Shown here: positions 16,821 through 59,112 of the stretch, in pieces
Layout: every line of letters starts with the position of its first letter
Numbering within the stretch: position 1 is the first letter of the stretch
From: a virus
UHGV virus genome: UHGV-0214148
Length of the DNA stretch: 64,000 nucleotides
Strand: one strand, 5' to 3'
Translations under genes and position numbers: made by a program
The notes under the pieces: generated by a model
Databases searched by the model: none
Told to the model about the DNA's origin: nothing
The model's input: the letters and a program-made list of their open reading frames with translations, nothing else

Positions 16821-16821
16821 T

Positions 16822-17135: not shown

Positions 17136-17153
17136 TTAGGTTGTTACCCCCTC

Positions 17154-17282: not shown

Positions 17283-17309
17283 GAACTTATCTCCTATGTT
17301 GAATTTGCG

Positions 17310-18419: not shown

Positions 18420-18443
18420 CTCACCTAGGTAATATATATCTGA
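18420..18443 (-). promoter_or_regulatory. promoter-like conserved motif, copy 1
   Basis: Minus-sense TCAGATATATATTACCTAGGTGAG, ~48 nt upstream of ATG 18372. Confidence 0.5.
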
Positions 18444-26675: not shown

Positions 26676-26699
26676 CTCACTAAGGTAATATCTATCTGA
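26676..26699 (-). promoter_or_regulatory. promoter-like conserved motif, copy 2
   Basis: Minus-sense TCAGATAGATATTACCTTAGTGAG, between paralog-1 terminator and ATG 26624. Confidence 0.5.
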
Positions 26700-26761: not shown

Positions 26762-26779
26762 TTACTAAACAATCAGGGA

Positions 26780-28042
26780 TTATTTAGATTTTTCGTAAGC
26801 AGCGATACCTGCGGAGATATAGCCGTTCAGACCGCCAGCCAGATGTTTCTGAGTAGAGGCAATAACTTTCTCGCCCAGAGACACTGCCTGGTTAATGCTG
26901 TTGATGTAACGACGTGCGGTACGTACAGATTCGGTCAGTTCCGGTTTTTCGTCGATCTTCACGCTGTCGATTTCTTTCAGCAGCTTCTCAATCTGCTGAC
27001 TGAATTTCTCGCGAGCCTGTTCGGTCTTACGATATTCCAGAACGTTCTTCTCAATCTGTTTACCCACTTCGTTGAAGAAGGCATTGGTCTTAGCCAGTTC
27101 GCTAACAGACGGAGTTTTAACGTTGGTTTCAGCACGGTTTTCAGCTTCCACGTAGCTGGAGCTAAAGCCGCCTTCTTCGTCATATTCCATCTTCAGCGCC
27201 ATGTTACCAAGTTTGAACTTGTTAACGTCTTCTTTGGCCAGAGCAGCGAAGTCTGCTTTCAGTTTATCAACTTTAGCGCCATCGCCTTTAACAACGTTAC
27301 CAACCAAATCCGTACCGTTGTTCAGGAAGCTCTGAACGTTACCACTGTAGTAGGTGGAAACGTGGTTCAGGATATTCTTCAGGCGCACCAGATCGTCACC
27401 AACGAATTTACCGTCGACGGACAGAGACTTGATGAAGCCACCAGAGATTTCATCTTTCTTCTGTTTGCCCAGCTTACGAATAGCTTCGTCGTATTTCTTA
27501 GAACGGGCCTGGATGGATTTACCCTGGTTGGAGAATTTCAGCCAACGATCTTTGATCTTACGGCCTTGTTCTTTCAGCCATTCCCAAATACGTTTCAGGA
27601 AGGCTTTAATGTCTTCCCACAGGGATTCACGAGCAACCTGACGACGGTTACGAGAACCGTAGGATTCGTGAGCAACAGAAGAACGGTGTTCGAAGTTCCA
27701 ACGAGAACGGATAGATTCCTGAGCAACGTCCAGCGCAGTCGCAGCGTCGTCCGGCATATCTTCTTCGGCGTCCATCGGTTCTTCACCGTCTTCGCCAGCA
27801 CCTTCACCGTCAGCAGCAGCCTGAGCTTCATCCAGAACTTCCAGCTGAGCATCAGTTTCGTCACCGTCTTCTGCCAGCAGTTCAGCGTCAGCGTCCAGGG
27901 CTTCGATCGGTTTGGTATCATGCTCGATATCGGCCAGAGTACCTTCAACAGATTCTGCTGGCAGTTCGATGCCGTCTGGAACTACAGTGGCAGTAGCTTC
28001 CATCGATTCACGAGCGGCGCGAGTTTTTGCGAAATTTGCCAT
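26780..28042 (-). CDS. acidic paralog 1 of tandem pair (~420 aa); possible abundant virion/head protein
   Basis: Track ORF 26780..28069 starts at GTG; ATG at 28040-28042 gives MANFAKTRAARESMEA, identical to the paralog 2 N-terminus; shared C-terminus GLNGY..AGI.AY.KSK; optimal codon usage. Confidence 0.85.
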   Translation of the reverse strand: MANFAKTRAARESMEATATVVPDGIELPAESVEGTLADIEHDTKPIEALDADAELLAEDGDETDAQLEVLDEAQAAADGEGAGEDGEEPMDAEEDMPDDAATALDVAQESIRSRWNFEHRSSVAHESYGSRNRRQVARESLWEDIKAFLKRIWEWLKEQGRKIKDRWLKFSNQGKSIQARSKKYDEAIRKLGKQKKDEISGGFIKSLSVDGKFVGDDLVRLKNILNHVSTYYSGNVQSFLNNGTDLVGNVVKGDGAKVDKLKADFAALAKEDVNKFKLGNMALKMEYDEEGGFSSSYVEAENRAETNVKTPSVSELAKTNAFFNEVGKQIEKNVLEYRKTEQAREKFSQQIEKLLKEIDSVKIDEKPELTESVRTARRYINSINQAVSLGEKVIASTQKHLAGGLNGYISAGIAAYEKSK

Positions 28043-28118
28043 TTTAAGCTTTTCCTCTAAGGGGAACACGTCGTTCCCCTATTGATTTATTTCAAGAACT
28101 GTACGAGCGTAAGTCTAA

Positions 28119-29390
28119 TTATTTAGACTTTTTGTACGCGCCGATACCAGCACCCAGGTAACCGTTCAGACCGCTAATGACGGTGTTAGCTACGTAGCTA
28201 ACGGCACGGTTCAGGGTCTGGTAGTTCTTCACAGACTGATCAGCAGCTTGACGTGCATTACGCAGTCCTTCCCACTTACTCTCGTCTTTTTCGTTGTTCA
28301 GCGCGTTGGACGCTTTTTCAGCAGCCTGTTGCAGTTTCACGATTTCAGAATCGTAAGCACGGAAATCTTTCAGTACGGCTTCGAAGCCTTTACCGATTGC
28401 TTCCAGAGCAGATGCTGCGCCAGCCATTTCAGAAACAGACGGAGTAGCCACTTCTTTATCGTCAGAAGCGTCACCGGTGCTCATGAAAGCAATTGCGGTG
28501 AACTTGTGGCCGCCAGCCAGTTCTTTAGTACCAGCCTGAACGTAAGCGTTGCCCGGCAGTGCCAGCAGTTTAGACGCATCACCATTTTCAAAGTTCGGCA
28601 GAGAATGCAGTTTAGACGCTGCTTTACCAAACAGTTCTACCGGCTGATCGCCACGCATTGCTTTGAATGCGTCATCGTCACCTTTGGTAACAGCGGTCAC
28701 AGCTTCACCGGCTTGTTTTTCCAGTGCACCGATAGCACCTTTCGCTTTACCTGCGGTAACTTCTTTAGCGATGGCAATAGAGCCAGCAGCATCGAATTTA
28801 CCTTCGATGGACAGTTTGGTGATAAAGCCACCAGAAATGTTGTCTTTATCTTGTTTGCCCAGCTTGCGGATCATTTCCTGATATTTCTTCGCACGTTTCT
28901 GCGCGGTCTTACCGACGTTGAAATATTTCAGTTTCAGGTCTTTGATCTTCGCGATCACTTCTTTACAGAACTGAATGAAGCGCTCGTAAAGACCCTTCAG
29001 GGTTTCTTTCCAACCTTCCTGGGCAGCAGCAGTCATGCCACGACCACGGCGATAGGATTCGCGAGCCAGTTTAGTGCGCTCCAGGTTCCAACGACGTGCG
29101 ATGGATTCCTGTGCCACTTCGTGCAGGGCAACCGCTTCTTCCGGCATTTCTTCACCGTTAGCAACGGCTTCTTCCGCCTGTTCGATAGCGTCTTCAGTAC
29201 GCTCGGTATCGGCAGCCAGGGTTTCACCGTCGGTTTCCAGCTGATCGAGCTGACCGTCGATAGATGCTACGTCCGCAAGTTGGACGTCCAGGTTCTCTTC
29301 TGCCGGTTCAACGTTGCTGATACCGTCGATTACTTCATCGGCCGCTTCCATCGATTCACGAGCGGCGCGAGTTTTTGCGAAATTTGCCAT
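28119..29390 (-). CDS. acidic paralog 2 of tandem pair (423 aa); possible abundant virion/head protein
   Basis: ORF track; ATG 29388-29390 with AAGGA Shine-Dalgarno; N-terminal 16 aa identical to paralog 1 (47 nt identical at DNA level). Confidence 0.85.
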   Translation of the reverse strand: MANFAKTRAARESMEAADEVIDGISNVEPAEENLDVQLADVASIDGQLDQLETDGETLAADTERTEDAIEQAEEAVANGEEMPEEAVALHEVAQESIARRWNLERTKLARESYRRGRGMTAAAQEGWKETLKGLYERFIQFCKEVIAKIKDLKLKYFNVGKTAQKRAKKYQEMIRKLGKQDKDNISGGFITKLSIEGKFDAAGSIAIAKEVTAGKAKGAIGALEKQAGEAVTAVTKGDDDAFKAMRGDQPVELFGKAASKLHSLPNFENGDASKLLALPGNAYVQAGTKELAGGHKFTAIAFMSTGDASDDKEVATPSVSEMAGAASALEAIGKGFEAVLKDFRAYDSEIVKLQQAAEKASNALNNEKDESKWEGLRNARQAADQSVKNYQTLNRAVSYVANTVISGLNGYLGAGIGAYKKSK

Positions 29391-29449
29391 TTCGTTTATT
29401 TCCTTTGGTTATATAACCCAATTACACGCCCCTAGAATGAGGGGCCCCC

Positions 29450-32106: not shown

Positions 32107-33405
32107 ATGAGTGACGAGACAGATAAGAACGATCCGGGGTATGACCCGAATACTGACTACGACGATTCTCTCCACAATCCGAATAACGCGGACGCGGTGC
32201 CTTCGGTCGCAGGATATTTCGACGGACGGATTAGTAATGCTAACCCCCCGACGCCTTACGACGCTAATACTGAACTTACGGCATGGAACGATCGTATCCG
32301 TCTTACTGTAGGTTTGGGTCTTGCTGCGCAGCGTTTGACCAACCCCTACATGGGGTTCAACCATATGATGGCGTCTAACCCCACGCCAATCAACCGAGAA
32401 TACGGTGGACTAACTTTTATTACCCGGCCCGATTTTAACCTGTGCTACGACAACATTGCTAAGTCACGTAAAATGTCGAACATGGCAATGCAGCCAAAGG
32501 ACTCCATAGATTATTCGATTTTAGCTGCGCTTGACCCCGATTTTGAACTCGGATTTACGGACGCACCTATGGAAAACGGTAGGCGGAAAAATCGCTTAGG
32601 TACGCCGTTTATGCCTCAAGTAAAATTCGATAATCTACAAGCGTTCATACCAATACTCAGTACGCAGCTGATTAGCCTTAGTGGTGCACCCGATCAATCT
32701 ATTGATAACTGGATGGCAAGTGAAGGTTTAATGCGTGAACAGTGGGGGATGGTTGACTCTACCCATGAAGTTAACAACAGCTTTTCCATCAGCATGTCAT
32801 TAAACAACCCCTATGGCGACCCATTAATGAAAATGATGGGCGTGTGGCTAGAGTATATGTCTGGTGTGAAGATGGGTAAGTTCCGTCCGAAAATGCGTAA
32901 CTCCATTCAACGTAGAATCGATTATCAATCGCGAATCTACGGGATGCGTTACGATGCCTTAGGGAACATCACCCGTTTCTGGACGATTTGTGTCGCATGG
33001 CCGATGAACGATAACGCGGGACAAATGGCGAACGTTGATAACTCCAAACCGCAGTTAAACGACGATGTTACGATTACTATTAACTGGCAAGCTATCGGTG
33101 CGCGGTTTAACGATCCATTATACATGGAAATGTTTAACCGCACCGTTTCCATTTTTAATCCCGATATGCTCCCGCAGCCAGGCTCTATTCAATCGGGCAA
33201 CTTCATCCCGATTGCTAGTGATCAATTAGTCCCCATCGCACCACAATTGCTGCCGTTGTTTAACTATTACGGTTATCCGCATATCGATTCCGTACGACGC
33301 AAACTTACCTGGTATGTTTACCAGGCAGACTACCAACATATTCTCAAGAAAGCGGGATTACTGGATAACGCTAATGCCGCTTCACTACCGACAGGTAATA
33401 ACTGA
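32107..33405 (+). CDS. hypothetical protein (432 aa)
   Basis: ORF track; GGAG Shine-Dalgarno 8 nt upstream; stop overlaps next start (TGATG). Confidence 0.8.
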   Translation: MSDETDKNDPGYDPNTDYDDSLHNPNNADAVPSVAGYFDGRISNANPPTPYDANTELTAWNDRIRLTVGLGLAAQRLTNPYMGFNHMMASNPTPINREYGGLTFITRPDFNLCYDNIAKSRKMSNMAMQPKDSIDYSILAALDPDFELGFTDAPMENGRRKNRLGTPFMPQVKFDNLQAFIPILSTQLISLSGAPDQSIDNWMASEGLMREQWGMVDSTHEVNNSFSISMSLNNPYGDPLMKMMGVWLEYMSGVKMGKFRPKMRNSIQRRIDYQSRIYGMRYDALGNITRFWTICVAWPMNDNAGQMANVDNSKPQLNDDVTITINWQAIGARFNDPLYMEMFNRTVSIFNPDMLPQPGSIQSGNFIPIASDQLVPIAPQLLPLFNYYGYPHIDSVRRKLTWYVYQADYQHILKKAGLLDNANAASLPTGNN

Positions 33406-36359
33406 TGAGTTCTACGACTTACGATACTTTGGCAAAGAACATATTGTTGTTTGCCCACCATCCGGCAGCGATGCAAACACTGCTCTTGAATCAGCTTCTG
33501 GATGTAGAAGACGCCGAAGGCCAAATAGTGTTACGTGACCCAACAGACCCTGTTGTTTATTTGGCGGAAATGGGGACAATGTTGGGCCATGCAACGCTTA
33601 TGGGGTTGCAAGAATCAGTGCCAAAGACATTTCCATCAATGGCGCAAACGTACGACGACCTGTTCCGACATATGTCCGATGTGGACTACGTTGATGTGTT
33701 CGCCCAACCTTCAACCACCGAGCTGTTGTTATTAATCGATGTTGATAGCTTAATCTCCAAGGCGTACCCTTTACAGATTGCGGGTGTGCGTAAGGTTGTT
33801 ATCCCACGTGACACAGTTTTCACGGTGTCAGGTTACACCTTTGCCATCCAGTACCCGATTGAAATCAGGGTACTTCCTTACGGCACCAATGAAAACCCAG
33901 CGTTTCAAGTTCTTTGGATTACCGAAACACAGTCGCCTATTTCTCCTGTGTCGACGAATGCGCTGGATTGGGAATTGACATCGTCTAACACCACGGCCTC
34001 GCAACTACTGGCAATCCATATCCCGGTTATGCAGTATGCGGTGAAGAACGAAAGCGACACCGTTGCGGGGAAAAATACCTTTGTCATGACCCGCCATTAC
34101 ACTAACAAATTTTTCTACGTAAGGGTGTGGATGAAATCAACCAACGATAACAAGTGGGTTGAAATTCAGCATACGCACAGTCGTGACGTTTACGACCCCA
34201 ACACCCCAACCGCGTTAATCCAGGTCGGTGACGGTGTTATACGGTGTACTATCCCCTCGATCTACATGGCGAAGAATTTGGTCAGTGGTGAAATTCGTAT
34301 GGATATCTACACGACCTTAGGGCCTTTAAGTGTCGATATCTCGGCTTATCCGTCTGACGAATACACGTTCACGTTGCGTGATTTAAACGGCGAATACGAC
34401 GAAAACTACGTTAACCCGATTAAGAGTTTTTCCATCAAACAGATGGCTGCAAAAGCAGGTAAAATGTTGTCAGGTGGTCGTAGCCAGCTCACGTTCGAAG
34501 ATTTGCGTACACGTGTAGTCAACAACGCTGTAGGTGCACGAAAACTCCCTGTAACGGAGAAACAATTAGAAGCAACGGTTTCTGACTACGGTCTAACGTT
34601 GTCGAAACCAAACGACTATGTTACTAGCCGTACATACTTCTTAACGGCACCGATGCTCGAATCGACAATTCCTAATGTCAGTTCTCCCATCGGGACGATC
34701 ACGGCACCGTTCTATTTCTCCTGGAATGAATTGGTTAATCTACCGACGGTAAAGGTTAACGGTAATCGCCTGACGATTCTTCCTGACACACTTTATCGGT
34801 TCACCGACACCAGCCTGACGGTTGATGCGGAGATGACGGTCTTGGCAAAAACCATGCGAAAAGAAGATTTGATTAACGCGGCCAACGCTAATCGTTATCT
34901 CTTTACACCATTCCATTACGTTGTGGATATCAACAATAAAGCCATTGACGTTCGTATTTATCAATTAGATAAACCGACGTTAAACTCCAAACGCTTTATT
35001 GCTACTAACGTAAGCACGGAACTCAGTGTGGTAACGGCCGACTACACTATCGAAAAGACCGAAGCAGGTTATGTTTTGCGTACCGTAACGAAGTCGGAGG
35101 CACCTTATCAAGCACTGACTGACGACCAAGTTTTTGCGCAGCTATCGTTCCGTCCGCGTAACGCAGACAACACTTTAGCGTACATCAACGGTACGTTAGT
35201 CGGTAAGCAGGGTAGCGAACGTGTATGGGAGTTCCTACTGGAAACCAACCTGGACGTTGACCGTAATGACGAATTGGTACTAACGAATACGCGTATTAGT
35301 AGTAGCACGCCAACGGAAACGCCTGTACCGCTGACAACAGACTTCAACCTGTTCTACGGCTGCACGGGTTACTACCCTGGCAATTACGAACGTGCGGAAA
35401 TGGATGCGTTAATCACTGCCCCATCACGTGATGCGATAGGTATTACCCATGAAATTTTCAAAATCGAATTGGGTAAGGCAATGACGTACTACTGGCGTAA
35501 AGCGCGTGCTGTTACTGACAGCATTAACTACCAGTATTACGAACAAGACGTGATGGCAACGTGGGAGATCGATGTTGTTAAACGCGATGAGAATGGTGTA
35601 CCAATCTATACTTACGATGCAGGCCGCACACCACCACTTCAGATCACGTACGAACATCGTAAAGGCGATCCTAAACTCGACGAAGCTGGGGAACAGATCG
35701 TCCTACATCGTGAAGGCGACTTAGTTAAAGACGAGTTTGGTAATCCGAAAATTGCGAAATCACGTTCTATCAAATTCCGGAGTGAGATGGCAGTGTTCGA
35801 TGCGCGATATAAATTCGCGACGACGTCTTCTGCAAAATCGTATCTGAATGAAGTTATCGAAAACATCGTTAACTACGTCACGGTAATACTCCCGACTTTG
35901 AAGCCTATGTTGTTAGAACGCACCGAAGGTTACTTTGTGCCGATTACAACAATGGGGTATATCGACGCTCGTACAGAGGACGGGGTAGTAACACCTGTCC
36001 CTGCGGAAAACCAGTTCACAGTACGCTATTACCTAACGGCTGCTAACCGTAATAACACCGAGCTCTTAACGCAGATTCGTAAGAAAACTTCTCAGGTTAT
36101 CAACGATTACTTGGGTAGCCATCTAACAATCTCTGCAACAGAAATCGGTAATGCGTTGAGTGAAACCCTCGATGCGTCTATTATCGGTGTTGAACTCGAT
36201 GCTATGGGGCCAGATAAAGACATGCGTCTCTTTACCGTTGTCTCAGAAGCATCAAGAGCAACTATAGGTAAAAAGCTGGACATTGAGGCCAGCGGCGACA
36301 TCGGGCTTAAAGACGATATCGTTATTGTTTATAACCGCCACGATACTACCGCCGATTAA
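33405..36359 (+). CDS. hypothetical large protein (984 aa), possibly structural
   Basis: ORF track; coupled to upstream gene; strong terminator downstream. Confidence 0.85.
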   Translation: MSSTTYDTLAKNILLFAHHPAAMQTLLLNQLLDVEDAEGQIVLRDPTDPVVYLAEMGTMLGHATLMGLQESVPKTFPSMAQTYDDLFRHMSDVDYVDVFAQPSTTELLLLIDVDSLISKAYPLQIAGVRKVVIPRDTVFTVSGYTFAIQYPIEIRVLPYGTNENPAFQVLWITETQSPISPVSTNALDWELTSSNTTASQLLAIHIPVMQYAVKNESDTVAGKNTFVMTRHYTNKFFYVRVWMKSTNDNKWVEIQHTHSRDVYDPNTPTALIQVGDGVIRCTIPSIYMAKNLVSGEIRMDIYTTLGPLSVDISAYPSDEYTFTLRDLNGEYDENYVNPIKSFSIKQMAAKAGKMLSGGRSQLTFEDLRTRVVNNAVGARKLPVTEKQLEATVSDYGLTLSKPNDYVTSRTYFLTAPMLESTIPNVSSPIGTITAPFYFSWNELVNLPTVKVNGNRLTILPDTLYRFTDTSLTVDAEMTVLAKTMRKEDLINAANANRYLFTPFHYVVDINNKAIDVRIYQLDKPTLNSKRFIATNVSTELSVVTADYTIEKTEAGYVLRTVTKSEAPYQALTDDQVFAQLSFRPRNADNTLAYINGTLVGKQGSERVWEFLLETNLDVDRNDELVLTNTRISSSTPTETPVPLTTDFNLFYGCTGYYPGNYERAEMDALITAPSRDAIGITHEIFKIELGKAMTYYWRKARAVTDSINYQYYEQDVMATWEIDVVKRDENGVPIYTYDAGRTPPLQITYEHRKGDPKLDEAGEQIVLHREGDLVKDEFGNPKIAKSRSIKFRSEMAVFDARYKFATTSSAKSYLNEVIENIVNYVTVILPTLKPMLLERTEGYFVPITTMGYIDARTEDGVVTPVPAENQFTVRYYLTAANRNNTELLTQIRKKTSQVINDYLGSHLTISATEIGNALSETLDASIIGVELDAMGPDKDMRLFTVVSEASRATIGKKLDIEASGDIGLKDDIVIVYNRHDTTAD

Positions 36360-36360: not shown

Positions 36361-36412
36361 AAAAAATAATAAAAGTTACCCTACTCCCGGAGGAGTAGGG
36401 TAATCTTTTTTT
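36361..36412. terminator. bidirectional intrinsic terminator (stem shared with 41721-41770)
   Basis: A-run, stem ttaccctactcc (36376-36387) / ggagtagggtaa (36392-36403), T-run 36404-36412. Confidence 0.8.
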
Positions 36413-38081
36413 AATCAACTAATTTATTGAACTTCCCGCCTTTTACAAGTGGGTTGGACTTGGCGCGTTTCAACACCGTTGCCATAGACCCTGCAGCCTT
36501 GCACCACATGTTAATCATGTTTGCACTGTGCGCAACAGAATCCCAGACATTACGGTCAGGGTTTAACACCATCATCGTGGTCAATTCACGGCCGTGAATG
36601 TTAAAATTTTCCCTTCGCGTCACCTGGTCTTTAAACGCCTGTTCCATCGCCTGCCATTTCTCAGTGTCAACACCAGAACGTGACTGACGCGCCATCTCTT
36701 TCAGCGTTTTTACAACCTGATCGACACGTTTTTCCAACACCTTATACTTGTCCAGCGCAGTATTCGCCACACCGTCCGAGATACCACTACGTGCCAGCGT
36801 AATCAGACATGCTAACAGCTCACGATAGTCGCCGTTACTTAAGCTCAACTCCTGGCGCATCATCTCCAGGTTTGTTGTGGAGCCAAAGAAAGAGTTAACA
36901 CCGACTGATGCAATCATCCAACCGTTGTCTAATTCACGTGTGGTATAGCCGAGAAGCTCAACCTTGTCTTTTACACGCAAAATTGGGCCCGGGCTACCTT
37001 TCTGTCGACCGAACTCCGTGGCAGTAAATTCAATTCGGCCGTTGATCTCACCTAACGCACGGACCAGATGCACCGCAGCAACTTGGTTCTCTTGCGACGT
37101 GCCTACCTTCGGGTTATTTGACAGGTAGTAAGTTTTGATATCTTTCAGCGACTGGTCTAAGTCCTGAAGCGCACGAGCAAAACTGTCAAGAATCATGCTC
37201 ATTAGGTTGAACTGGGTATCTGACGGAATGTTCACACCAGCACGTTTCACATCAGGCGGCAAACCGTTATAGACTTCCTCAGCAACCCCGAAATCAAATA
37301 CACCGTAACCGATGTTCGTCCGTAGCAGCGTATCTAGCAGATCCTGAATAACCTGCAGCTCATTCTGACGTCGTTTAAGGTGGTTCTTAAACGTATCGAT
37401 AAACGGCGATTTCCCTAACGCGGCGGCGAGTTTATTTAGAAACTCTTCAGCTTCCATGTTCACGAAAACATCGTCGGCCAGTGAAAGAGATAACTCCAGG
37501 TTGCTTAACTCGCTGTCTTTCAAACCTTTTGACAGTACCAGATAAACTTCTTTCAGTACAGTAGTTTTCAAGCGCTCTGTGAAAGGAAGATCGGCCAACT
37601 TCTCTTCCAGTTTCTCGCGATAGTCGTTCCCGTCAATGTTCGCAGCGCCCGCAAAAGGAACAGCGTTGCTGATAATCCAACTGAGGATTTTCATTATCCC
37701 CATCATCACCATCACGATAAGGCTAATCTTACCGAAATTAGCGTAAGACTCTAATGCCACCACCGTTTCTTTCTGGTGTGTTTTGGAATAATTCGACGTC
37801 AGTACACTTTGTACAGCCTTCGGGATCGTGCCAGGACGCAAAGATTCAGTCGCTACAGCAACATCACGGTTCAATCCTGCTTTACGGATTTCACGCAGAA
37901 TCGCTTCAATCTGTGCGATAAGACGAGAACCGTAGATCAGGTCTGCTTCATTACGCTGCATGTAGAGATTGAGTTGGCTAACAGAATCGATTCGTTCTTC
38001 CATACGTTGTTCTAATAACGCAGGAAGTTCATCGAGTTTCCACTGCGGTTGCGCAATGTTTGCCATCATCTCCATGCTCAT
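36411..38081 (-). CDS. hypothetical protein (556 aa) with a hydrophobic segment
   Basis: ORF track; ISLIVMVMMGIMKILSWIISNAV hydrophobic stretch; ATGA overlap with upstream gene. Confidence 0.8.
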   Translation of the reverse strand: MSMEMMANIAQPQWKLDELPALLEQRMEERIDSVSQLNLYMQRNEADLIYGSRLIAQIEAILREIRKAGLNRDVAVATESLRPGTIPKAVQSVLTSNYSKTHQKETVVALESYANFGKISLIVMVMMGIMKILSWIISNAVPFAGAANIDGNDYREKLEEKLADLPFTERLKTTVLKEVYLVLSKGLKDSELSNLELSLSLADDVFVNMEAEEFLNKLAAALGKSPFIDTFKNHLKRRQNELQVIQDLLDTLLRTNIGYGVFDFGVAEEVYNGLPPDVKRAGVNIPSDTQFNLMSMILDSFARALQDLDQSLKDIKTYYLSNNPKVGTSQENQVAAVHLVRALGEINGRIEFTATEFGRQKGSPGPILRVKDKVELLGYTTRELDNGWMIASVGVNSFFGSTTNLEMMRQELSLSNGDYRELLACLITLARSGISDGVANTALDKYKVLEKRVDQVVKTLKEMARQSRSGVDTEKWQAMEQAFKDQVTRRENFNIHGRELTTMMVLNPDRNVWDSVAHSANMINMWCKAAGSMATVLKRAKSNPLVKGGKFNKLVD

Positions 38082-38521
38082 ACCAGTTTGCCTCGCGTTT
38101 CATCCATATAGAATTTCACCGTTTCCATGAAGCGTTCCAGCCACAGGTTAACGGTATCCCATACATCATCGCCCAGCGCTTCATTGAAAATCTCACGAAC
38201 AGAGAAATTCTCAATAGCGCGACGACCGCCCCAAGCACTGTCGTAACGGTTGCAGAATAGCCCAACGGTCAAATCTTCGATGCTGCCCAGGTCGACACAA
38301 TAGAGTTCGTTCACATCGGACACAACATTTTTCATCAACGGACGAAGTTTAAGTTGTGCTACCTCATTCGCTCCCAGCGGTCCATTATCGGGCATATCGG
38401 CGTTATACGCCAGTGTGAATGCAACCAGGCCAGTCAGAGCACGTTGTGCCTGTACTCCCTTACCCTCGTTCGTACGTTTAAAGTCCAGAACTAAGGAGTT
38501 TAAAGAAACTTTATGCGTCAT
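38078..38521 (-). CDS. hypothetical protein (147 aa)
   Basis: ORF track. Confidence 0.7.
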   Translation of the reverse strand: MTHKVSLNSLVLDFKRTNEGKGVQAQRALTGLVAFTLAYNADMPDNGPLGANEVAQLKLRPLMKNVVSDVNELYCVDLGSIEDLTVGLFCNRYDSAWGGRRAIENFSVREIFNEALGDDVWDTVNLWLERFMETVKFYMDETRGKLV

Positions 38522-38535
38522 GATTTTACCTTTAC

Positions 38536-39903
38536 TTATTCGACATTAAACATGGCTGAAGCAATACGAAGGTCATTCGACATGTACTTCCCGATTGCAC
38601 GCTGATAGTCCACAGCAGCACGTGAACGACGACCCTTCGGCGTCAAGGTATTCCAGATAAACTGATACAGATTATCTTTGTCTTTTACCGTTTCTAACAG
38701 CTTGTCGATAACCGCAATACCATCCAGAATACGTTTACGTTGTTCGTTAGCAGCTTTCGTATTCTTGTCTTTAATCGTATTGAGTTCTTCAACGAGTGTA
38801 CGACGCATCGCCTCAAAACGCTGCTGCGGCGGATCGTAAATGGTGTTATCCGGGTCATTTAAGATCATTCCGAACGTCACAGAGATCACCGGAATAATTG
38901 GAATCGTAGAAGAAACTATCAGCGCAGTCACGCGGAAAAGCTCCAGTGTCAAATGGACACCCATGTTCATATACGCTGAGTTCCGCAGCAAATAGAACGG
39001 ACTGGTTTCCATTTTATACAGTGCCGAGGCCAGATAAGGAGCGCCACCAAAGCGGGAAGCAAAATCATCCGCAGCACGTTCCCATGTCCTGTTAGCAAAA
39101 CCTTGACTGCCGCTAATGTACGGACGATCTAATAACAGCTGTGTGACTAAGTGCATATAGACGTTTTCTTTTTTGTACTCAGTACAAATCGTTTCCGGCT
39201 GATTCACTTTCGTGTTCAGCATCTTTTCCACGTCTTTAACGATACGCAGGCGGACAGTTTGGTCTTCCGTTTCCATAATGCGGTTAGCCGCAGCATCTGC
39301 CAGCAAATCAGTCACTACAGTGCGCATCAGCGTACGGAAATAATAGTAGATGTGGCCCACCTCGTGAAGAATCACCGAAGCGATCTCCAGATCGGTCAAG
39401 TTTAGTTTTTCCAGCAGCACCGGGGTAAGGTAAAGCGGAGAACCTACTTTGCTTAGGTCACCACTGATTTTTGCACTGCTGTCATCGATTGTTGTGTTTA
39501 ACTCGTTTTCTTTGATGAACTTACTGTACATATCCAGGTCTTTGTTACCTGCGTACAGTGCGCGAGTCATCGATGCGATGATTGGGCTGTTTGCATCCAA
39601 TTTCGGTGGTTCTACACCTGCAAAAGCAACGTCAGCAAGACCCAGTTCGCCACCGTTCTTAAAGTGAATCGTAATGCCGATATTCTTAAATACCCAATCC
39701 GAAACCCCGGCACTTTCGTAGCCCGCAGGACTGAAATCGCCTGCCCCACGAAACTTAGCAATAACATCAGCCAATTCTGCCAGCTTCTTTTTGTCTTGGA
39801 ATTTAATCGATTCTGCGGCTACAACCTTTGCATCCGCAACTGATGCAATGTGATTTTGCCAATATCCCATTTGTGTTTCCTTTTGAGAAATTACATTACC
39901 CAC
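38536..39903 (-). CDS. putative zinc metalloprotease (HExxH; M48/M56-like)
   Basis: ORF track; ILHEVGHIYYY (HExxH) followed ~75 aa later by WERAADDFA (ExxADxxA-like third-ligand motif). Confidence 0.6.
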   Translation of the reverse strand: MGNVISQKETQMGYWQNHIASVADAKVVAAESIKFQDKKKLAELADVIAKFRGAGDFSPAGYESAGVSDWVFKNIGITIHFKNGGELGLADVAFAGVEPPKLDANSPIIASMTRALYAGNKDLDMYSKFIKENELNTTIDDSSAKISGDLSKVGSPLYLTPVLLEKLNLTDLEIASVILHEVGHIYYYFRTLMRTVVTDLLADAAANRIMETEDQTVRLRIVKDVEKMLNTKVNQPETICTEYKKENVYMHLVTQLLLDRPYISGSQGFANRTWERAADDFASRFGGAPYLASALYKMETSPFYLLRNSAYMNMGVHLTLELFRVTALIVSSTIPIIPVISVTFGMILNDPDNTIYDPPQQRFEAMRRTLVEELNTIKDKNTKAANEQRKRILDGIAVIDKLLETVKDKDNLYQFIWNTLTPKGRRSRAAVDYQRAIGKYMSNDLRIASAMFNVE

Positions 39904-39941
39904 AAATCAGTATAGCAGCCGCTAGATTTGAGAGTGAAATC

Positions 39942-41723
39942 ATGAATAACTATTACGCACCGGAAGACGTTATTGCCAAGGAGTGCAAGTTTGTTTCTTA
40001 CGCAACCGATCAGCAGAAAGAAAACGACTTCGTGCTCATAAAGGAGGTCGTCCATACTAAAGATGGCAGATATATCCCACGAATTGTCATGCGTGAAAAT
40101 CTGAAACGTCCCATCTACATTACATTACCACAACATCGTAACCACAAGGAAAAGAAGGAATACGAGGAACGTAGTAAGTGTCAGGAGTATTTAACAACGG
40201 ATGTAATGATGTCCTCAACCATACAGATGGGTTTGGGGATTCGTTTTCCCGACAAAAAGAAACCACTCCGCCAAGTTTGCACTTCACCGTTTGTTTACTG
40301 GGCCGATTTGCCCATTACGAGCTGGATTAAAGAAAAGTACATGCGTAAATGGCCTAATGCTGTTTCACCCAACCGCATCTGTGTATACGACGTGGAAACT
40401 CGAGAAGAAGACAAATCTCGAGACCCCTGGATTATGAGTTTTGTTTTAGACGACGAAATTCATTTCTTTGCTACGAAAGACTATGTCACACGCTGCGGAC
40501 GTGAAAACTTTGAAGCGCGACTCGTCAATCGTGCTCAGGAATTGCTTTCTAAAATCGCTTTTCGTGGGAAAGACGAGAACGACAATCCTATCGTTAAATA
40601 CAAAAACGTTATCGACGGTTACAAAATCTTCGTTTACGAATGTCTCAATTCGGGCTGTTGTATTCAACGGATGTTTGAGGAAATTCACCCTCGTCTCCCT
40701 GACTTACTCGTCGCATGGAACCACGAGTTCGATATTTCACGTATGTTAGAAGCTTTAGAAGCAGCGGGCATTCCACCGGAAGACGTCTTCTGTCATCCAG
40801 ACGTGCCGAAACAGTACCGTCGTGTCTACTTTAAGAAAGACGAAGCATCGAAGAAAACGGAATCAAAGTCACTAACAAAAGCACCTTCACAGCAGTGGCA
40901 CATTCTTTATTGTACGGCGTCATTCTACTGTGTAGATGCGATGTGTCTATTCCGTTCATTGCGTGTACACGAAGGGCAACGTCCTTCTTACAAACTTAAC
41001 GCGATACTGGAAACCGAGTTGGGTTTAAACAAGTTAGACTTACCGGATTTACCCTACGAGGAAAAATTGGAATGGCACTTAAAGGCACAGAAAGATTTCC
41101 CGTTAGAATACTGCGTTTATAACATCTTCGATAACCTGATGATTGTTCTGCTTGATAAAAAGACGAACGATCTGTCTTCTGCTATTTCAGTGTTGGCAGG
41201 TTATTCGATGTACGATATCTTCCCTTCACTGCCGAAGCGAATCTGTATTGCGTACACGTACTACCTCTACGAACAAGGTCTGGTTATCGGCTGTGTTGGT
41301 AGCGCGATGCGTAACGATTTTGACAATGAAGTCATTGGGACAGACGGTTGGATTGTTACATTGACCGCGTGTATGAACGCAGAGAATGGCCTACGAAACA
41401 TCATCAAGGAGGTTGATGATTTCTACACGGCTTTCCGTGGACAAACCGCAGATGCTGACTTAACCCAGGCATACCCATCCGCAACAAACATGATGAACCA
41501 GTCTCGTGAGACGACGTTAATCGAGTTATTAAGCATTCACGGTGTTCCTGAAGAAGTACGGCGTCGCGTCGGTATTAACCTTACTGCAGGTCGCGTTAAC
41601 GCAATGGAGATCGCGACAGATTTCTTCCTATTACCCGATAAAAACGACGTCTTAGAAGCTTTTCTACGTCGACAAGGAGAAGCAATTACCGATCCTTTTG
41701 AATACATCAAAGCCGCAAAGTAA
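39942..41723 (+). CDS. putative 3'-5' exonuclease (DnaQ / family-B polymerase exonuclease-domain-like)
   Basis: Track ORF 39828..41723 trimmed to ATG 39942 (MNNYYAPEDV) to avoid overlapping the divergent gene; motifs VYDVETRE (Exo I DxE), WNHEFD (Exo II), YNIFDNL (Exo III YxxxD). No polymerase motifs A/C seen. Confidence 0.55.
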   Translation: MNNYYAPEDVIAKECKFVSYATDQQKENDFVLIKEVVHTKDGRYIPRIVMRENLKRPIYITLPQHRNHKEKKEYEERSKCQEYLTTDVMMSSTIQMGLGIRFPDKKKPLRQVCTSPFVYWADLPITSWIKEKYMRKWPNAVSPNRICVYDVETREEDKSRDPWIMSFVLDDEIHFFATKDYVTRCGRENFEARLVNRAQELLSKIAFRGKDENDNPIVKYKNVIDGYKIFVYECLNSGCCIQRMFEEIHPRLPDLLVAWNHEFDISRMLEALEAAGIPPEDVFCHPDVPKQYRRVYFKKDEASKKTESKSLTKAPSQQWHILYCTASFYCVDAMCLFRSLRVHEGQRPSYKLNAILETELGLNKLDLPDLPYEEKLEWHLKAQKDFPLEYCVYNIFDNLMIVLLDKKTNDLSSAISVLAGYSMYDIFPSLPKRICIAYTYYLYEQGLVIGCVGSAMRNDFDNEVIGTDGWIVTLTACMNAENGLRNIIKEVDDFYTAFRGQTADADLTQAYPSATNMMNQSRETTLIELLSIHGVPEEVRRRVGINLTAGRVNAMEIATDFFLLPDKNDVLEAFLRRQGEAITDPFEYIKAAK

Positions 41724-41770
41724 AAAAAAATAAACGTTACCCTACTCCCATCGGGAGTAGGGTAATACTT
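41721..41770. terminator. bidirectional intrinsic terminator (stem shared with 36361-36412)
   Basis: A-run 41721-41733, stem ttaccctactccc (41737-41749) / gggagtagggtaa (41753-41765), T-rich tail. Confidence 0.8.
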
Positions 41771-42280
41771 TTATGCCGCGTTGAAGCAGTAAGCCAGTAA
41801 GTGTTGCAGCTCTGGATCGGTCACACGTTGTACCAAACGACCAACGTTGTCACGCTGAGCGAAGTTTGCTTTATCCTGGGAATTTGCGAAACGTACTAAC
41901 ATATTGATGAACACGACGTATGTTTCACGTTCGGCGGAATCGTAAAACCAATCTAAATGGTAGTTTACATTCGGATAGTAGAAGATACCGCGCTTGTGTT
42001 TAATTGCAGCTTCAACGAACACGTTGAAAGCATCAATGAACGCCTGACCGCGTAATTCAAATAACGAACGGAACGATTGATGCAGCTTACGGAAAGCGTC
42101 GTCAGCTTCTGGGGTATCTTTCGGTTTATTTTGGCTAATTGCCCCGCCAGCCTCATCGAGCTGAGTAGCAATAAGTCGCACCTGGTACGCATCATCCTGA
42201 CTGTAAGTTACCGCATTTTCCTCAGCGCGTCTTACCGCTGATGGGCGTTCATCTTGTGTCGAAATATCTTTAGTTGCCAT
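41771..42280 (-). CDS. hypothetical protein (169 aa)
   Basis: ORF track. Confidence 0.7.
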   Translation of the reverse strand: MATKDISTQDERPSAVRRAEENAVTYSQDDAYQVRLIATQLDEAGGAISQNKPKDTPEADDAFRKLHQSFRSLFELRGQAFIDAFNVFVEAAIKHKRGIFYYPNVNYHLDWFYDSAERETYVVFINMLVRFANSQDKANFAQRDNVGRLVQRVTDPELQHLLAYCFNAA

Positions 42281-42293
42281 TGGCTAATAATCC

Positions 42294-43595
42294 TTACGTA
42301 ATGTGGATCGATGGATTAAATTCGTGTACCACTGTCTCTTTACCGTGCATCGCGGCCATTGCCACGGACATAACGTTAGAGAACGCCGAGGATATATCCG
42401 CAGCGATTGCGCGAGGTTCTTCCCCTTTATTCGCAGACGAACACGCTGTGCAGGTGTCGATGTGGCCATACTGACATAAGATGGGTCGGCGTAACCGCAC
42501 CACTTTACCTAACTGCTGTTTTAAATATTCCTCAGTCAGTGGTGTCAGTTTACCATTAACCATCGCGTTCATCCCAACGTAACGTTTTACGTTATCATCG
42601 GTAATCACAACTGGATACGTTAATTTCGTTCCACAGTCACCAGGGACGATTCGGTGGTTCTGGAAAATCATCTGGATAATACGTACCTGCTCACCCCCTT
42701 TCGCTGTTTCCGCACCACGAGAGAACGAACCTTCGCGGATAGAGTTGAATTTCGCGACCAGGTTTTCCATCCCCGCCTTATCAACTTCAACTAATGCGTT
42801 CGGAATGAGCGTATAATGCCCCCCTTCCTGAAAAGACGATTCAATACCGTACATCAGCATTAATTTACGTCGACGCATCCGCGATTTCGGCGAGTTATAA
42901 AACTCAATAGATTGGTCACCCGACAACCACTCTTTATCTAACTCATCCAGCGCTTTTTCAATCTTAACGATAACGGCAGGATCGTCTAACTCGTCCTTAT
43001 GCTTTAATAGCAACGCATCACGTATTTTATACGCATCAGGATGCACCGTGAGACTTCGTAACGTACCGGTTGGTGCAATACCTGACGTGAGCGGTGCGAG
43101 CTCGTGTAAGCCGCTTACAAAGCGCTCAATCATACTCGGTCGAATTGCACCTTCGTTTTCTGGCTCATCGGTTTCATGGTCTAAACAACGACGATGCATC
43201 TCTTTGCGATATTCCAACGGGTTTTGTGAAATCGCCAGATAGGGTAAGCGTGTACCAAATGCATACCAGATAACAATCCAGTTAAAAACGTATCGTCCTA
43301 CTGTCGTGGGAATAGGACCGTCTAAACCGGGATAATCGTCAGGGCGTAGCTCGAACTGTTCTTCAGGGATAAACAGCTCCTGGTCCTTTACACCGTCAGT
43401 AATCGGTTCCCAACTGCCCTTACCGTCTTCTACAGCGTAATAATGCGGTAAGCCGTCGATATACGTTATATCAAACGCTTCGGGTTCTTCGCGTCCTGTT
43501 GGAAACACCGACATGTTAAAAATAGCAATACGCCAAACCAGACGTCGCCAAGCTTCTGCTTTACATGCCGCTACTAAGAACTCAAACCTCGTCAT
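42294..43595 (-). CDS. hypothetical protein (~433 aa)
   Basis: Track ORF starts at TTG 43613; ATG at 43593-43595 has GAGGAGG Shine-Dalgarno ~10 nt upstream. Confidence 0.8.
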   Translation of the reverse strand: MTRFEFLVAACKAEAWRRLVWRIAIFNMSVFPTGREEPEAFDITYIDGLPHYYAVEDGKGSWEPITDGVKDQELFIPEEQFELRPDDYPGLDGPIPTTVGRYVFNWIVIWYAFGTRLPYLAISQNPLEYRKEMHRRCLDHETDEPENEGAIRPSMIERFVSGLHELAPLTSGIAPTGTLRSLTVHPDAYKIRDALLLKHKDELDDPAVIVKIEKALDELDKEWLSGDQSIEFYNSPKSRMRRRKLMLMYGIESSFQEGGHYTLIPNALVEVDKAGMENLVAKFNSIREGSFSRGAETAKGGEQVRIIQMIFQNHRIVPGDCGTKLTYPVVITDDNVKRYVGMNAMVNGKLTPLTEEYLKQQLGKVVRLRRPILCQYGHIDTCTACSSANKGEEPRAIAADISSAFSNVMSVAMAAMHGKETVVHEFNPSIHIT

Positions 43596-44448
43596 CGTGC
43601 TCTGCCTCCTCAACCTGATAAATCAGCCGTAGGCTTTTTAATGCAGGTTGTAAAACAGTAATGGGTTGTAACCCATCATTATTAAGTTTCTCTAAGTTCG
43701 TCGAAAGATCGGCATACGCGTCATCGAAGTCATCGTTATCGATAATCGAAAGTCCTACCGTATACATCTCGAGTAACTCTGTTTCGCTGTAATCTTCGAC
43801 GTCAAACACTAACGATTGTTGGACAACCGTCAAATCAGGATCTTCAGGTAAGTTTAGGAATACGAACGCAGAAGGGTTTTGCGGATAAAGACGCAAGTAT
43901 TCTGCAATACGTGTCAGACGCGCATCGTTACCTACTGCGAGTTGTTCATCCACAACCATAGCTGAGAGATAGTTACGCATCACTGTCATTACACGGGGTG
44001 AAACACGAATGACTAAATCTTCAAAATGGATATTGTCATCGCCGTATACGTAACGGCAGATACTTTCCAGGATAAACTCTGGCGTTTCTCCAGACATCAC
44101 GAGGCCGTATAGCGTATCGGTGTCTTCGAACTCTTCGAATTTAGACGTAATACCATCCAGAATACGTACGGTCTCTTTCGGTTTACGGAAAACTTCTTGT
44201 GGGTTTAAAGCAACGCCTAAACGGTTACCTAACGCCACGGCACATTTTACAATAATCCCTTCCAGTCTTACGGTTTCGTCGGCAGGATCAGACGACGGTT
44301 GCCAATACACATCGCTTAACGCAACATCGTAACCGTAATCCATACACAGCGTTACTAAGTCCAGGAAAGGCGCAGCACGTTCTTCCGCACGATTGACGGT
44401 AAGAACGGCGGCGTAATCGGTATAAATGTCAATCATAGCCTTTTCCAA
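43582..44448 (-). CDS. hypothetical protein (288 aa)
   Basis: ORF track. Confidence 0.8.
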   Translation of the reverse strand: MEKAMIDIYTDYAAVLTVNRAEERAAPFLDLVTLCMDYGYDVALSDVYWQPSSDPADETVRLEGIIVKCAVALGNRLGVALNPQEVFRKPKETVRILDGITSKFEEFEDTDTLYGLVMSGETPEFILESICRYVYGDDNIHFEDLVIRVSPRVMTVMRNYLSAMVVDEQLAVGNDARLTRIAEYLRLYPQNPSAFVFLNLPEDPDLTVVQQSLVFDVEDYSETELLEMYTVGLSIIDNDDFDDAYADLSTNLEKLNNDGLQPITVLQPALKSLRLIYQVEEAEHDDEV

Positions 44449-44470: not shown

Positions 44471-44513
44471 GAAAAAAAAAAGAAAAAGCTAAGGGAGTCG
44501 TAAAGACTCCCTT
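44471..44513 (-). terminator. intrinsic terminator
   Basis: Stem aagggagtc (44491-44499) / gactccctt (44505-44513), loop GTAAA; on minus strand followed by AGCTTTTTCTTTTTTTTTT. Confidence 0.75.
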
Positions 44514-44517
44514 ATAC

Positions 44518-53913: not shown

Positions 53914-53937
53914 TTCAGTAGGATAATATCTATCTCA
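53914..53937 (-). promoter_or_regulatory. promoter-like conserved motif, copy 3
   Basis: Minus-sense TGAGATAGATATTATCCTACTGAA, ~22 nt upstream of beta gene ATG 53892; sits in the divergent region with plus gene 53956. Confidence 0.5.
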
Positions 53938-59088: not shown

Positions 59089-59112
59089 TCCACTAAGATA
59101 AAATCTATCTCA
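59089..59112 (-). promoter_or_regulatory. promoter-like conserved motif, copy 4
   Basis: Minus-sense TGAGATAGATTTTATCTTAGTGGA, ~29 nt upstream of ATG 59060. Confidence 0.45.

Follow-up and report, generated by a model that had tools for sequence, protein, structure and literature searches.

Hairpins on either side of the DNA polymerase gene of an SPN3US-like jumbo phage share their stem with a clade-wide family of putative bidirectional terminators

In the giant phage phiKZ, 61 mapped intrinsic terminators share the motif 5'-BCCYCCCCHWWDGGGRRGGBYTTATKYYGT-3', which runs from a C/Y-rich arm through a loop of 4 nt into a G/R-rich arm and ends in a tail with TTAT (Putzeys et al. 2024, PMC10914365). 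A comparable motif (motif A) is found in phage 201phi2-1, whose terminators were validated in vivo (PMC11512511). Promoter-terminator cassettes, referred to as PeSLs, have been described in T4-like phages (Arbiol et al. 2010, PMC2839356; Comeau et al. 2014, PMC4122927). Furthermore, quasipalindrome template switching is an established mechanism that was first seen in T4 (Ripley 1982, rIIB; Lovett lab, PMC7202029). We found no paper on terminators or transcript 3' ends of the SPN3US clade, and since we found no 3'-end data for SPN3US-like phages or the phage analyzed here, we infer termination from anatomy and from the phiKZ-group precedent. Here we analyzed two hairpins (A and B) within a 64,000-nucleotide stretch of viral DNA, referred to here as the window. 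We consider it probable (roughly 70%) that A and B are bidirectional intrinsic terminators and paralogous members of a family that owes its spread and its uniformity to ectopic copying and to template switching at hairpins. They would share a stem because both are paralogous members of the clade-wide terminator family ACCCTACTCC/GGAGTAGGGT.

The window belongs to an uncultured SPN3US/Machinavirus-like jumbo phage, related to Salmonella phage SPN3US and equipped with multisubunit RNA polymerases of its own. IMG/VR contig 3300045988_113438 is 97% identical to it, and its PHROG matches and gene order in the neighbourhood of the hairpins agree with those of SPN3US and ChrisDB, the RNA polymerase beta subunit gene included, as in a phiKZ-type host phage. 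The order site A, DNA polymerase gene, site B is kept in 12 genomes. As the earlier note had claimed, the two sites carry the same 12-13 bp stem, perfectly paired and with different loops, and each hairpin has an A-run before it and a T-rich tract after it and lies between a plus-strand gene and a convergent minus-strand gene (Table 1).

Table 1. Hairpins A and B and their flanking genes (window coordinates).
Feature	Position	Strand	Description
Virion structural protein gene, 984 aa	33405..36359	+	PHROG 3248; ortholog of SPN3US gp218; transcript enters hairpin A
A-run 5' of hairpin A	36361..36375		Minus-strand reading CTTTTATTATTTTTT, a U-tract with TTAT for the minus-strand transcript
Hairpin A	36376..36403		TTACCCTACTCC cgga GGAGTAGGGTAA; perfect 12-bp stem, 4-nt loop
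T-run 3' of hairpin A	36404..36412	+	TCTTTTTTT, plus-strand U-tract; overlaps stop codon of the minus-strand gene
556-aa gene	36411..38081	-	PHROG 8131; ortholog of SPN3US gp219; converges with 33405-36359 on hairpin A
147-aa and 455-aa genes	38078..39903	-	PHROG 8529 and 2767; SPN3US gp220 and gp221 (virion structural); in one unit with the 556-aa gene, ending at hairpin A
Family B DNA polymerase gene	39942..41723	+	PHROG 3011; ortholog of SPN3US gp222; likely ATG at 39942, inside ORF 39828-41723; transcript enters hairpin B
A-run 5' of hairpin B	41722..41736		Minus-strand reading CGTTTATTTTTTTTT, a U-tract with TTAT
Hairpin B	41737..41765		TTACCCTACTCCC atc GGGAGTAGGGTAA; perfect 13-bp stem, 3-nt loop
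Tail 3' of hairpin B	41766..41775	+	TACTTTTATG, short U-tract with TTAT for the DNA polymerase transcript
169-aa gene and phage RNA polymerase beta-like subunit gene	41771..43613	-	PHROG 7825 (ORF 41771-42280) and PHROG 2962 (42294-43613); unit converges with the DNA polymerase ORF on hairpin B

Both hairpin cores lie outside coding sequence, 8-19 nt from the flanking ORF ends, and each was called as a hairpin on both strands. The 5' arms, TTACCCTACTCC(C), contain no G and the 3' arms contain no C. RNA folding gave -24.0 kcal/mol (+) and -25.5 kcal/mol (-) for hairpin A and -24.8 kcal/mol (+) and -23.7 kcal/mol (-) for hairpin B, with z-scores of -5.5 to -7.2 across all four hairpin strands. 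U-tracts follow the hairpins as UCUUUUUUU at A(+), CUUUUAUUAUUUUUU at A(-), and CGUUUAUUUUUUUUU at B(-), and three of the four tails contain TTAT. The plus-strand tail of hairpin B (TACTTTTAT) is weaker than that of hairpin A (TCTTTTTTT); its U-tract is only UACUUUUAU, which counts against a termination role on that strand, and the same tail type is kept at this site in SPN3US and ChrisDB. Stable folding on both strands, the U-tracts, and the proximity to convergent stop codons all support the earlier note's reading of A and B as terminators, as does every sequence criterion available. Transcripts from either strand would form a hairpin of 12-13 bp with a U-rich tail behind it and would thereby undergo factor-independent termination. 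Because such a structure forms on either strand, hairpin A may insulate the virion-protein unit from the gp219-221-like unit, and hairpin B may do likewise between the DNA polymerase gene and the unit with the RNA polymerase subunit.

The same anatomy bears on whether the repeated stem is instead a duplex-DNA operator, bound by a dimeric phage regulator that co-controls both loci. The dyad symmetry is perfect and the two copies bracket a 5.3-kb block that holds the DNA polymerase gene, as an operator pair might. However, the spacing between half-sites is 4 nt at A and 3 nt at B and varies from 3 to 8 nt across the family, which makes a protein-binding site in duplex DNA unlikely, and both sites lie at the 3' ends of convergent genes, away from promoters. 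No promoter-like site adjoins hairpin A or B, and both flanking genes point inward. We therefore regard an operator as extremely improbable, and the protein-binding site proposed earlier is retained solely in the form of a factor that reads the folded stem (considered below). Some family copies in Machina and SPN3US adjoin a promoter-like motif.

We found that the exact 12-mer occurs in the window only as the four arms of hairpins A and B. Other matches to it, 7 where 3.3 are expected, each carry two mismatches and are at chance level, and no half-site of the window stands alone outside a hairpin. The window has 14 terminator-like hairpins, of which A and B are the sole pair to share at least 8 bases; they share 12. 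Across 300 shuffles in which every arm kept its composition, shared runs extended to 9 at most, and a run of at least 9 appeared in only 2 shuffles; the sharing of the A and B stem exceeds chance. In SPN3US, five stem pairs share a 9-mer or longer where 0.31 are expected, and none of 300 composition-matched shuffles reached five. Of the tails, 11 of 17 in the window and 30 of 54 in SPN3US contain TTAT (raw counts, no shuffled control). The loop is UUCG in 18 of the 54 oriented SPN3US terminator tails. The earlier note's remark that many other terminators use 4-nt TTCG/CGAA loops is partly true: the window has the loops cgaa at 6579 and 11521, cgaaaa at 17326, and cga at 54281.

The search for the stem sequence was extended to other genomes, where the core hairpin, a 10-bp stem of the form ACCCTACTCC-loop-GGAGTAGGGT, was found in 34 IMG/VR stretches from approximately 18 viral contigs, mostly jumbo-phage genomes of 220-248 kb or large fragments. 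Genomes contain 2-5 copies: five each in contig 113438, the closest genome, and in 3300029126_1, four in 078609, three in phiEaH2, and two each in SPN3US (at 113,924 and 160,009) and Huxley. The duplicated module that had been suggested is thus supported in a broader form, as a dispersed multi-copy family. Nearly all copies lie within approximately 25 nt of at least one flanking ORF end and most are between convergent genes, while copies between tandem genes have a T-tract on the sense side. The sites occupied by the core are non-orthologous between genera; in Machina and Huxley it sits 3' of the major capsid gene, and the terminator that follows the capsid gene differs in stem between the window and SPN3US. 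Three one-step variants of the core stem were found (ACCCACTCC, ACCTACTCC, and ACCCTCTCC), of which ACCCACTCC and ACCTACTCC replace each other at orthologous sites between unchanged flanks. Variants have expanded by lineage, with four copies of ACCCACTCC in ChrisDB and three of ACCTACTCC in Huxley, while window-clade contigs were matched in the scan for the canonical core and absent from the scans for ACCCACTCC and ACCTACTCC. In 596 Gb of bacterial genomes we found nine scattered core matches where we estimate approximately four by chance, and none of the nine was in Enterobacterales.

We asked whether such sharing could arise without copying, by convergence or chance within a narrow, composition-constrained space of terminator sequences with a G-poor 5' arm and a C-poor 3' arm. 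The space is indeed narrow: SPN3US 5' arms are 46% C and only 13% G, many stems are assembled from the same short words (TACCC, CTCC), and phiKZ terminators are similarly constrained. Nevertheless, the shuffles never matched the observed sharing in either the window or SPN3US, and the exact 20-base core is at chance level in bacteria yet concentrated, in its 34 stretches, within one phage clade. Furthermore, the identity of A and B extends slightly beyond the core, to G-TT...AA-T in the window subclade and to GC-T...A in that of 078609. Convergence is disfavoured by these data, and we consider it improbable.

We compared sites A and B in 12 genomes that were fetched via DNA polymerase homology, independent of the hairpins. 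All 12 have a hairpin at site A, without exception of the xTACCC(x)CTCC type. At site B, 11 of 12 have a hairpin, and the most distant genome contains no hairpin of at least 8 bp there. The stem at site B is CCTCxCTACC in SPN3US, ChrisDB, and Caitlin; in the window clade it equals the site A stem, as it does in phiEaH2 with another variant. Site B keeps its tail TACTTTTAT despite this change of stem. A swap in place is seen between phiEaH2 and 3300031418_5 (83% identical), in which the site A hairpin changes from CTACCCACTCC with loop ttttcg to CTACCTACTCC with loop ccag between identical flanks. Loops vary freely across the family and are often exactly inverted between close relatives: atc and cgga of the window correspond to gat and tccg, and elsewhere ttttcg corresponds to cgaaaa (twice) and cgaga to tctcg. 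Loop flips appear to be the commonest kind of change at these hairpins.

These comparisons speak to the suggestion that the module is mobile. A miniature mobile element (REP/RAYT-like or MITE-like) that inserts in intergenic regions and terminates incidentally would yield a dispersed, multi-copy palindrome whose sites vary between genera, as observed here, and the internal CTAC/GTAG presumably resembles the REP head motif. However, orthologous sites hold a hairpin in every case but site B of the most distant genome, we saw neither empty sites nor target-site duplications, and the differences are confined to stem and loop, with flanks unchanged. The unit is only approximately 24-29 bp, no transposase-like gene was present among 10 neighbouring proteins scanned, and bacterial genomes do not carry the element above chance level. 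Mobility in the transposon sense is not supported, and we regard this explanation as very improbable.

In the explanation that we favour, ectopic copying among terminators, family copies would overwrite one another by ectopic gene conversion or template switching, probably aided by the flanking A-tracts and T-tracts that all these terminators have in common. Template switching within a hairpin would keep the arms perfectly complementary and flip the loop. The site A stem type is probably ancestral at site A, and site B in the window lineage may have been overwritten with it while keeping its own tail. A small number of site comparisons suggest this mechanism. The 44 stem positions compared between the window and 078609 show 0 substitutions, at 79.6% overall identity. 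Since unrelated terminators are also strongly stem-conserved at orthologous sites (window 54281 compared with SPN3US 28594), stem conservation alone is no proof of copying.

Such conservation raises a further explanation, that the stem is a sequence-specific element that a conserved phage factor reads as a folded hairpin, in RNA or single-stranded DNA, with copies that also terminate and a sequence kept by selection for binding. Candidate roles for such a factor would be termination or antitermination, the protection or processing of 3' ends, or a step in how nucleus-forming phages handle RNA. An identical 10-bp core is found at differing sites in genera with only approximately 70% DNA identity, the stem is fixed while loops and flanks are free, and the lack of isolated half-sites and of stem substitutions relative to 078609 would also be expected. 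On the other hand, the exact core is present in only approximately 2-5 of the approximately 40-55 terminators per genome, and at the same sites it is replaced by several variants one step away (a deletion of 1 nt, a compensated change from C-G to T-A), a substitution that a strict sequence reader would not tolerate. The equal stem conservation of unrelated terminators also counts against a reader, and no candidate factor was identified. We consider a reader of the folded stem unlikely, and the specific proposal that the 10-bp stem ACCCUACUCC/GGAGUAGGGU is an RNA signal read by a conserved protein of SPN3US-like nucleus-forming jumbo phages a little more doubtful still. If true, such a signal would regulate termination or antitermination, or would mark the 3' ends of certain transcripts for protection, processing, or export, and would account for a stem that persists at shifting locations across genera amid drift of loops and flanks. 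Neutral paralogy with concerted evolution would predict lineage-specific consensus stems, and the identical core across genera appears to count against it. Judged from the sequences, the identical core agrees better with selection acting on the stem sequence as such, or with phages often exchanging it, than with simple duplication.

Our data extend the finding of sequence-constrained terminators in phiKZ-like phages with their own RNA polymerase to the SPN3US/Erwinia jumbo-phage clade. They suggest an evolutionary picture in which a small set of exact stem alleles is exchanged between sites and expands differently by lineage, with frequent loop flips. The family could help to annotate transcription units of giant phages, could supply compact, bidirectional parts for terminating transcription, and could serve as a natural setting in which to study how template switching and gene conversion act on hairpins. 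Were the stem read by a factor, these phages would have an unknown layer of RNA control.

Hairpins A and B are not a new kind of element. DNA uptake sequences in Neisseria and Haemophilus occur as inverted pairs inside terminators, and as in our data a 10-12-nt word is over-represented mostly as the two arms of terminator hairpins. Uptake sequences, however, also occur singly, unlike the stem within the window, and have a known DNA-level reader, whereas none is known for the A/B stem. PeSLs are similar in that they are short conserved stem-loops, act as terminators, recur in many copies within the genome of a large virulent phage, and have been proposed to recombine with one another. They differ in that a PeSL combines an early promoter with a stem-loop, while A and B stand without one, and in that PeSLs are located in hyperplastic regions, where they mark the insertion, deletion, and replacement of genes, while A and B lie between conserved core genes with unchanged synteny in the 12 genomes. 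Hairpin-loop inversions are known from organelle non-coding DNA. Our hairpins resemble the products of quasipalindrome template switching and loop inversion, since pairing between the arms remains perfect and the loop in one close relative is the exact reverse complement of that in another; template switching, though, is a mutational mechanism rather than an element, here acting on predicted terminators. The closest likeness is to phiKZ and 201phi2-1, giant phages with their own multisubunit RNA polymerases, whose terminators also have a pyrimidine-rich, G-poor 5' arm, a short loop, a purine-rich 3' arm, and a T-rich tail with TTAT, and are present in many copies per genome, some of them bidirectional. 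The phiKZ consensus CCYCCCCHWWDGGGRRGGBYTTAT had no matches in the window at up to three mismatches, and the phiKZ terminators are known from 3'-end mapping while the family described here is known from sequence. Stems in the window phage are longer (10-13 bp) and interspersed with A/T, and those of its clade comprise a few discrete, exactly repeated alleles in contrast to the one degenerate consensus of phiKZ.

Two hairpins of the window, here called A and B, between which a family B DNA polymerase gene lies, carry the same stem around different loops when read directly from the sequence (table below). Across the 64-kb window, every exact copy of the 12-mer is an arm of one of these hairpins, four in all. 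Both hairpins have the anatomy of bidirectional intrinsic terminators, with an A-run before, a T-rich tail after and convergent genes on either side. In a consensus scan, each was called terminator-like on either strand, and their stems are the longest of the region. As RNA, all four strands fold as expected, at -23.7 to -25.5 kcal/mol, compared with approximately -9 kcal/mol for shuffled controls (z-scores of -5.5 to -7.2). Sequence and ORFs therefore bear out the reused stem, differing loops, A- and T-runs and convergent genes described in an earlier note, and its reading of the pair as terminators is well founded on anatomy and precedent. A and B are the sole pair with at least 8 shared bases among the window's 14 terminator-like perfect hairpins, and the longest run shared in shuffles preserving each arm's composition was 9. 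The stem sharing is real, and chance is excluded. A further bidirectional terminator-like hairpin, of opposite arm polarity, has the word GGGAGT/ACTCCC in common with the 10-bp stem common to A and B (the canonical stem, or core).

Coordinates of the hairpins, repeats and motifs discussed in the text
Feature	Genome	Position	Sequence (loop in lower case)	Setting
Hairpin A	window	36376-36403	TTACCCTACTCC cgga GGAGTAGGGTAA	between convergent ORFs 33405-36359 (+) and 36411-38081 (-)
Hairpin B	window	41737-41765	TTACCCTACTCCC atc GGGAGTAGGGTAA	between ORF ending 41723 (+) and converging ORF 41771-42280 (-)
Hairpin of opposite polarity	window	44490-44514	TAAGGGAGTC gtaaa GACTCCCTTA	purine-rich 5' arm
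Kept terminator outside the family	window	54281	AAAAGAAGGGAC	
Its counterpart	SPN3US	28594	AAAGAAGGGAC	
Core copies	SPN3US	113,924; 160,009		adjoining genes without homolog in window
Second exact family	SPN3US (NC_027402.1)	67345; 94154; 180981	(T)CCCTCTTACC ttcg GGTAAGAGGG(A)	unrelated flanks
D1 region	window	16040-17400		three tandem cassettes at 16317, 16713 and 17033
Candidate promoter motif	window	18424-18441; 26680-26697; 53918-53935; 59093-59110	AGATAGATATTACCTTAG	minus strand only
Paralogous segments	window	26779-29392		tandem 163-nt and 57-nt repeats
49-nt repeat	window	27996-28044; 29344-29392		100% identity

NCBIfam returned zero matches among the 10 proteins neighbouring A and B, so PHROGs was required for phage identification. 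PHROGs and BLAST placed the window in the SPN3US/Machinavirus group of approximately 240-kb jumbo phages, with genes for virion structural proteins, the family B DNA polymerase and a phage RNA polymerase beta-like subunit, in an order colinear with SPN3US gp218-gp224 and ChrisDB gp58-gp64. The best match is IMG/VR contig 3300045988_113438 (97.3% nucleotide identity), followed by 3300029126_000001 (94.8%) and two contigs at approximately 79%. Among GenBank phages, megablast matched the region at only approximately 74% identity, over the polymerase gene, so a close cultured relative is absent. The nearest cultured phages (SPN3US, phiEaH2 and ChrisDB) are just approximately 68-70% identical in DNA over a 13.7-kb block, which makes the window part of an uncultured SPN3US-like jumbo-phage lineage known solely from IMG/VR contigs. 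Rfam at gathering thresholds gave 0 matches in the whole window, placing the hairpins outside described RNA families, and ARAGORN found 0 tRNAs there.

We scanned a viral collection with the 10-bp core as ACCCTACTCC-N2-8-GGAGTAGGGT and found 34 stretches in approximately 18 viral contigs, mostly 220-248 kb genomes or large fragments. Contig 113438 has five copies (two of these in the window), 3300029126_000001 five, 078609 four, phiEaH2 three, and SPN3US and Huxley two each. A and B are thus members of a dispersed family; the genome-wide stem search proposed earlier returns two hairpins in the window and a multi-copy family in the collection, and the duplicated module that the earlier note suspected exists in a wider sense than it saw. 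Bacterial and archaeal genomes (596 Gb) had only 9 scattered matches to the core pattern, none in Enterobacterales, with approximately 4 expected by chance on our estimate. This near-absence indicates that the hairpin belongs to the phage clade rather than to hosts, and host mimicry or host origin was rejected. A CRISPR-repeat mimic was considered on account of the 28-30 nt palindromic unit, whose sequence is not known to resemble enterobacterial type I-E/I-F CRISPR repeats.

Among the 43 core instances listed, whose stem is fixed by construction of the query, loops are 4 to 8 nt long with unrelated sequences, and the flanks have in common only an A-rich and a T-rich side. Copies lie within approximately 25 nt of a flanking ORF end, the majority between convergent genes; those between tandem genes have the T-tract on the sense side. 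The protein-binding site also proposed earlier could take two forms. An operator recognised as duplex DNA is disfavoured because the spacing of its half-sites varies, while a factor that reads the folded stem is improbable but keeps a small share of our belief. Core-hairpin sites are non-orthologous across genera: Machina and Huxley have one copy 3' of the major capsid gene, where the terminator is GTCTAAGCCC in the window and AGCTTACTCCC in SPN3US. We saw no empty sites, which speaks against movement as a transposon-like element, the mobile reading of the earlier note.

In Machina and SPN3US, canonical hairpins are directly followed by a motif resembling AGATAGATATTACCTTAG, which has 4 matches in the window at up to 3 mismatches against 0.03 expected; it is a candidate phage promoter that would form terminator-promoter junctions. 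Elsewhere in the window, each cassette of repeat family D1 combines a variable 11-12 bp hairpin, a conserved GCTTTAACTT...AAGTTAAAGC hairpin and a G-rich terminator-like hairpin, and adjoins small minus-strand ORFs; the cassettes could be paralogous small genes with a shared structured leader, or small RNAs. The tandem paralogous segments, at approximately 71-77% identity, and the 49-nt repeat suggest duplicated genes with one stretch recently homogenised.

We compared sites A and B across 12 genomes chosen by DNA polymerase homology, blind to hairpins. Site A has one stem type throughout: the window clade carries TTACCCTACTCC or TACCCTACTCC; phiEaH2, ChrisDB and 3300011862 carry CTACCCACTCC; 3300031418_5 carries CTACCTACTCC; and SPN3US carries CTACCCTCTCC. 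Site B is more variable. The canonical stem is found there in 4/4 window-clade genomes, whereas SPN3US, ChrisDB, Caitlin and 3300011862 have (A)CCTCxCTACC(C), Huxley has CTACCTACTCC, and phiEaH2 and 3300031418_5 have TACCCACTCC. The window, SPN3US and ChrisDB share the tail TACTTTTAT... at site B. Given the constant type at site A and this shared tail, the A-type stem is probably old at site A, and the stem of the window lineage was overwritten at site B with local flanks kept. A second in-place swap occurred at site A, where CTACCCACTCC ttttcg of phiEaH2 is replaced by CTACCTACTCC ccag in 3300031418_5 between identical flanks, a compensated stem change with a new loop. Overall identity between these two genomes is 83%; in the intergenic region of site B it is 100%, loop included.

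The two variants exchanged in this second swap are also multi-copy and unevenly distributed among lineages. In the collection scan, ACCCACTCC has four copies each in ChrisDB and phiEaH2 and three in SPN3US, and TACCTACTCC three each in Huxley and 3300031418_5; window-clade contigs were absent from both scans. The ACCCACTCC core was also seen within longer stems (AGCCCTACCCACTCC...) followed by GGGTTAT in IMGVR_UViG_638276680_000001 (211,215 bp), and likewise in longer stems of several 160-280 kb contigs outside the SPN3US group, a hint that other phiKZ-like phages also have members of this word family. The stems of SPN3US and ChrisDB look block-permuted between the sites, being CTACCC-x-CTCC at A and CCTC-x-CTACCC at B, and x covaries (T/T, A/A). 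Derivation of site B from site A by block permutation was set aside, since the lineages are effectively only two and the arms are of low complexity, which makes it inseparable from shared word usage. Nor does stem distribution support a dedicated coupling of A and B around the DNA polymerase block: the two stems are equal in the window clade and phiEaH2 and unequal in 3300031418_5, Huxley and SPN3US, which indicates family membership rather than a dedicated pair.

The commonest difference between close relatives is an exact reverse-complement of the loop. At site B, atc in the window is gat in 113438; at site A, cgga and tccg distinguish 113438 from 3300029126. Between 095954 and 078609 (97% identical), both sites differ in this way (ttttcg/cgaaaa at A, cgaga/tctcg at B). 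A fourth site has ttttcg versus cgaaaa, and three more possible flips each carry one or two substitutions. Of all changes at these terminators, loop inversion seems the most frequent. Template switching inside an inverted repeat, by which arms are made perfectly complementary, was first described in phage T4 (PMC7202029). The flips match the signature expected of strand switching within an inverted repeat and indicate that, in vivo, the palindromes interact at the DNA level. From pairing in an A/T tract, a nascent strand could then go on to copy a paralogous hairpin.

Stem reuse is not confined to the canonical stem, since SPN3US has a second exact family in three copies with identical loops. 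Its whole genome contains 42 terminator-like perfect hairpins, approximately 9 of which differ from the canonical stem by no more than one or two edits, and 5 pairs share a 9-mer or longer versus 0.31 in shuffles (5 reached in 0/300 shuffles). Between the window and 078609, we found 0 changes in 44 A/B stem positions at an overall identity of 79.6%, for which we calculated a binomial probability of approximately 4e-5 under average-rate evolution. Stems of unrelated terminators are also kept between the window and SPN3US, as in the pair at 54281 and 28594, beside proteins 64-70% identical. Strong pairing constraint is general to terminators and not peculiar to the canonical family.

We propose that phage RNA polymerases, arriving from either side, terminate at the hairpins. 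Transcription of the virion-protein unit would thereby be insulated by hairpin A from that of the gp219-221-like unit, and hairpin B would do likewise between the DNA polymerase gene and the unit with the RNA polymerase subunit. Identical stems would arise by ectopic copying among terminators, followed by strong pairing constraint on both strands. Under concerted evolution alone, a separate consensus would be expected for every lineage, yet several genera keep one and the same 10-bp core, at differing locations. This constancy may reflect either frequent DNA exchange between phages or selection on the sequence itself.

SPN3US-like phages have their own multisubunit RNA polymerases, as in phiKZ, for which 133 termination sites were mapped by Putzeys et al. 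(PMC10914365). In phage 201phi2-1, a similar motif occurs in 59 terminators, with 15 bidirectional sites, and eight terminators were validated in vivo (PMC11512511). A and B share this architecture: the 5' arm lacks G and the 3' arm lacks C, the loop is short, and the tail contains TTAT (3/4 tails of A and B, 11/17 in the window and 30/54 in SPN3US). The literal phiKZ motif was not found in the window; by sequence, A and B would not be members of that motif itself, and we treat them as the SPN3US-clade counterpart of a known class. The nearest analogue of repeated, recombining terminators is the PeSL cassettes of T4-like phages (PMC2839356, PMC4122927), unlike which A and B neither carry a fused promoter nor mark gene-content changes. 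The kind of element is itself already known; the evolutionary interest of these hairpins lies in their allele switching and loop flip-flop.
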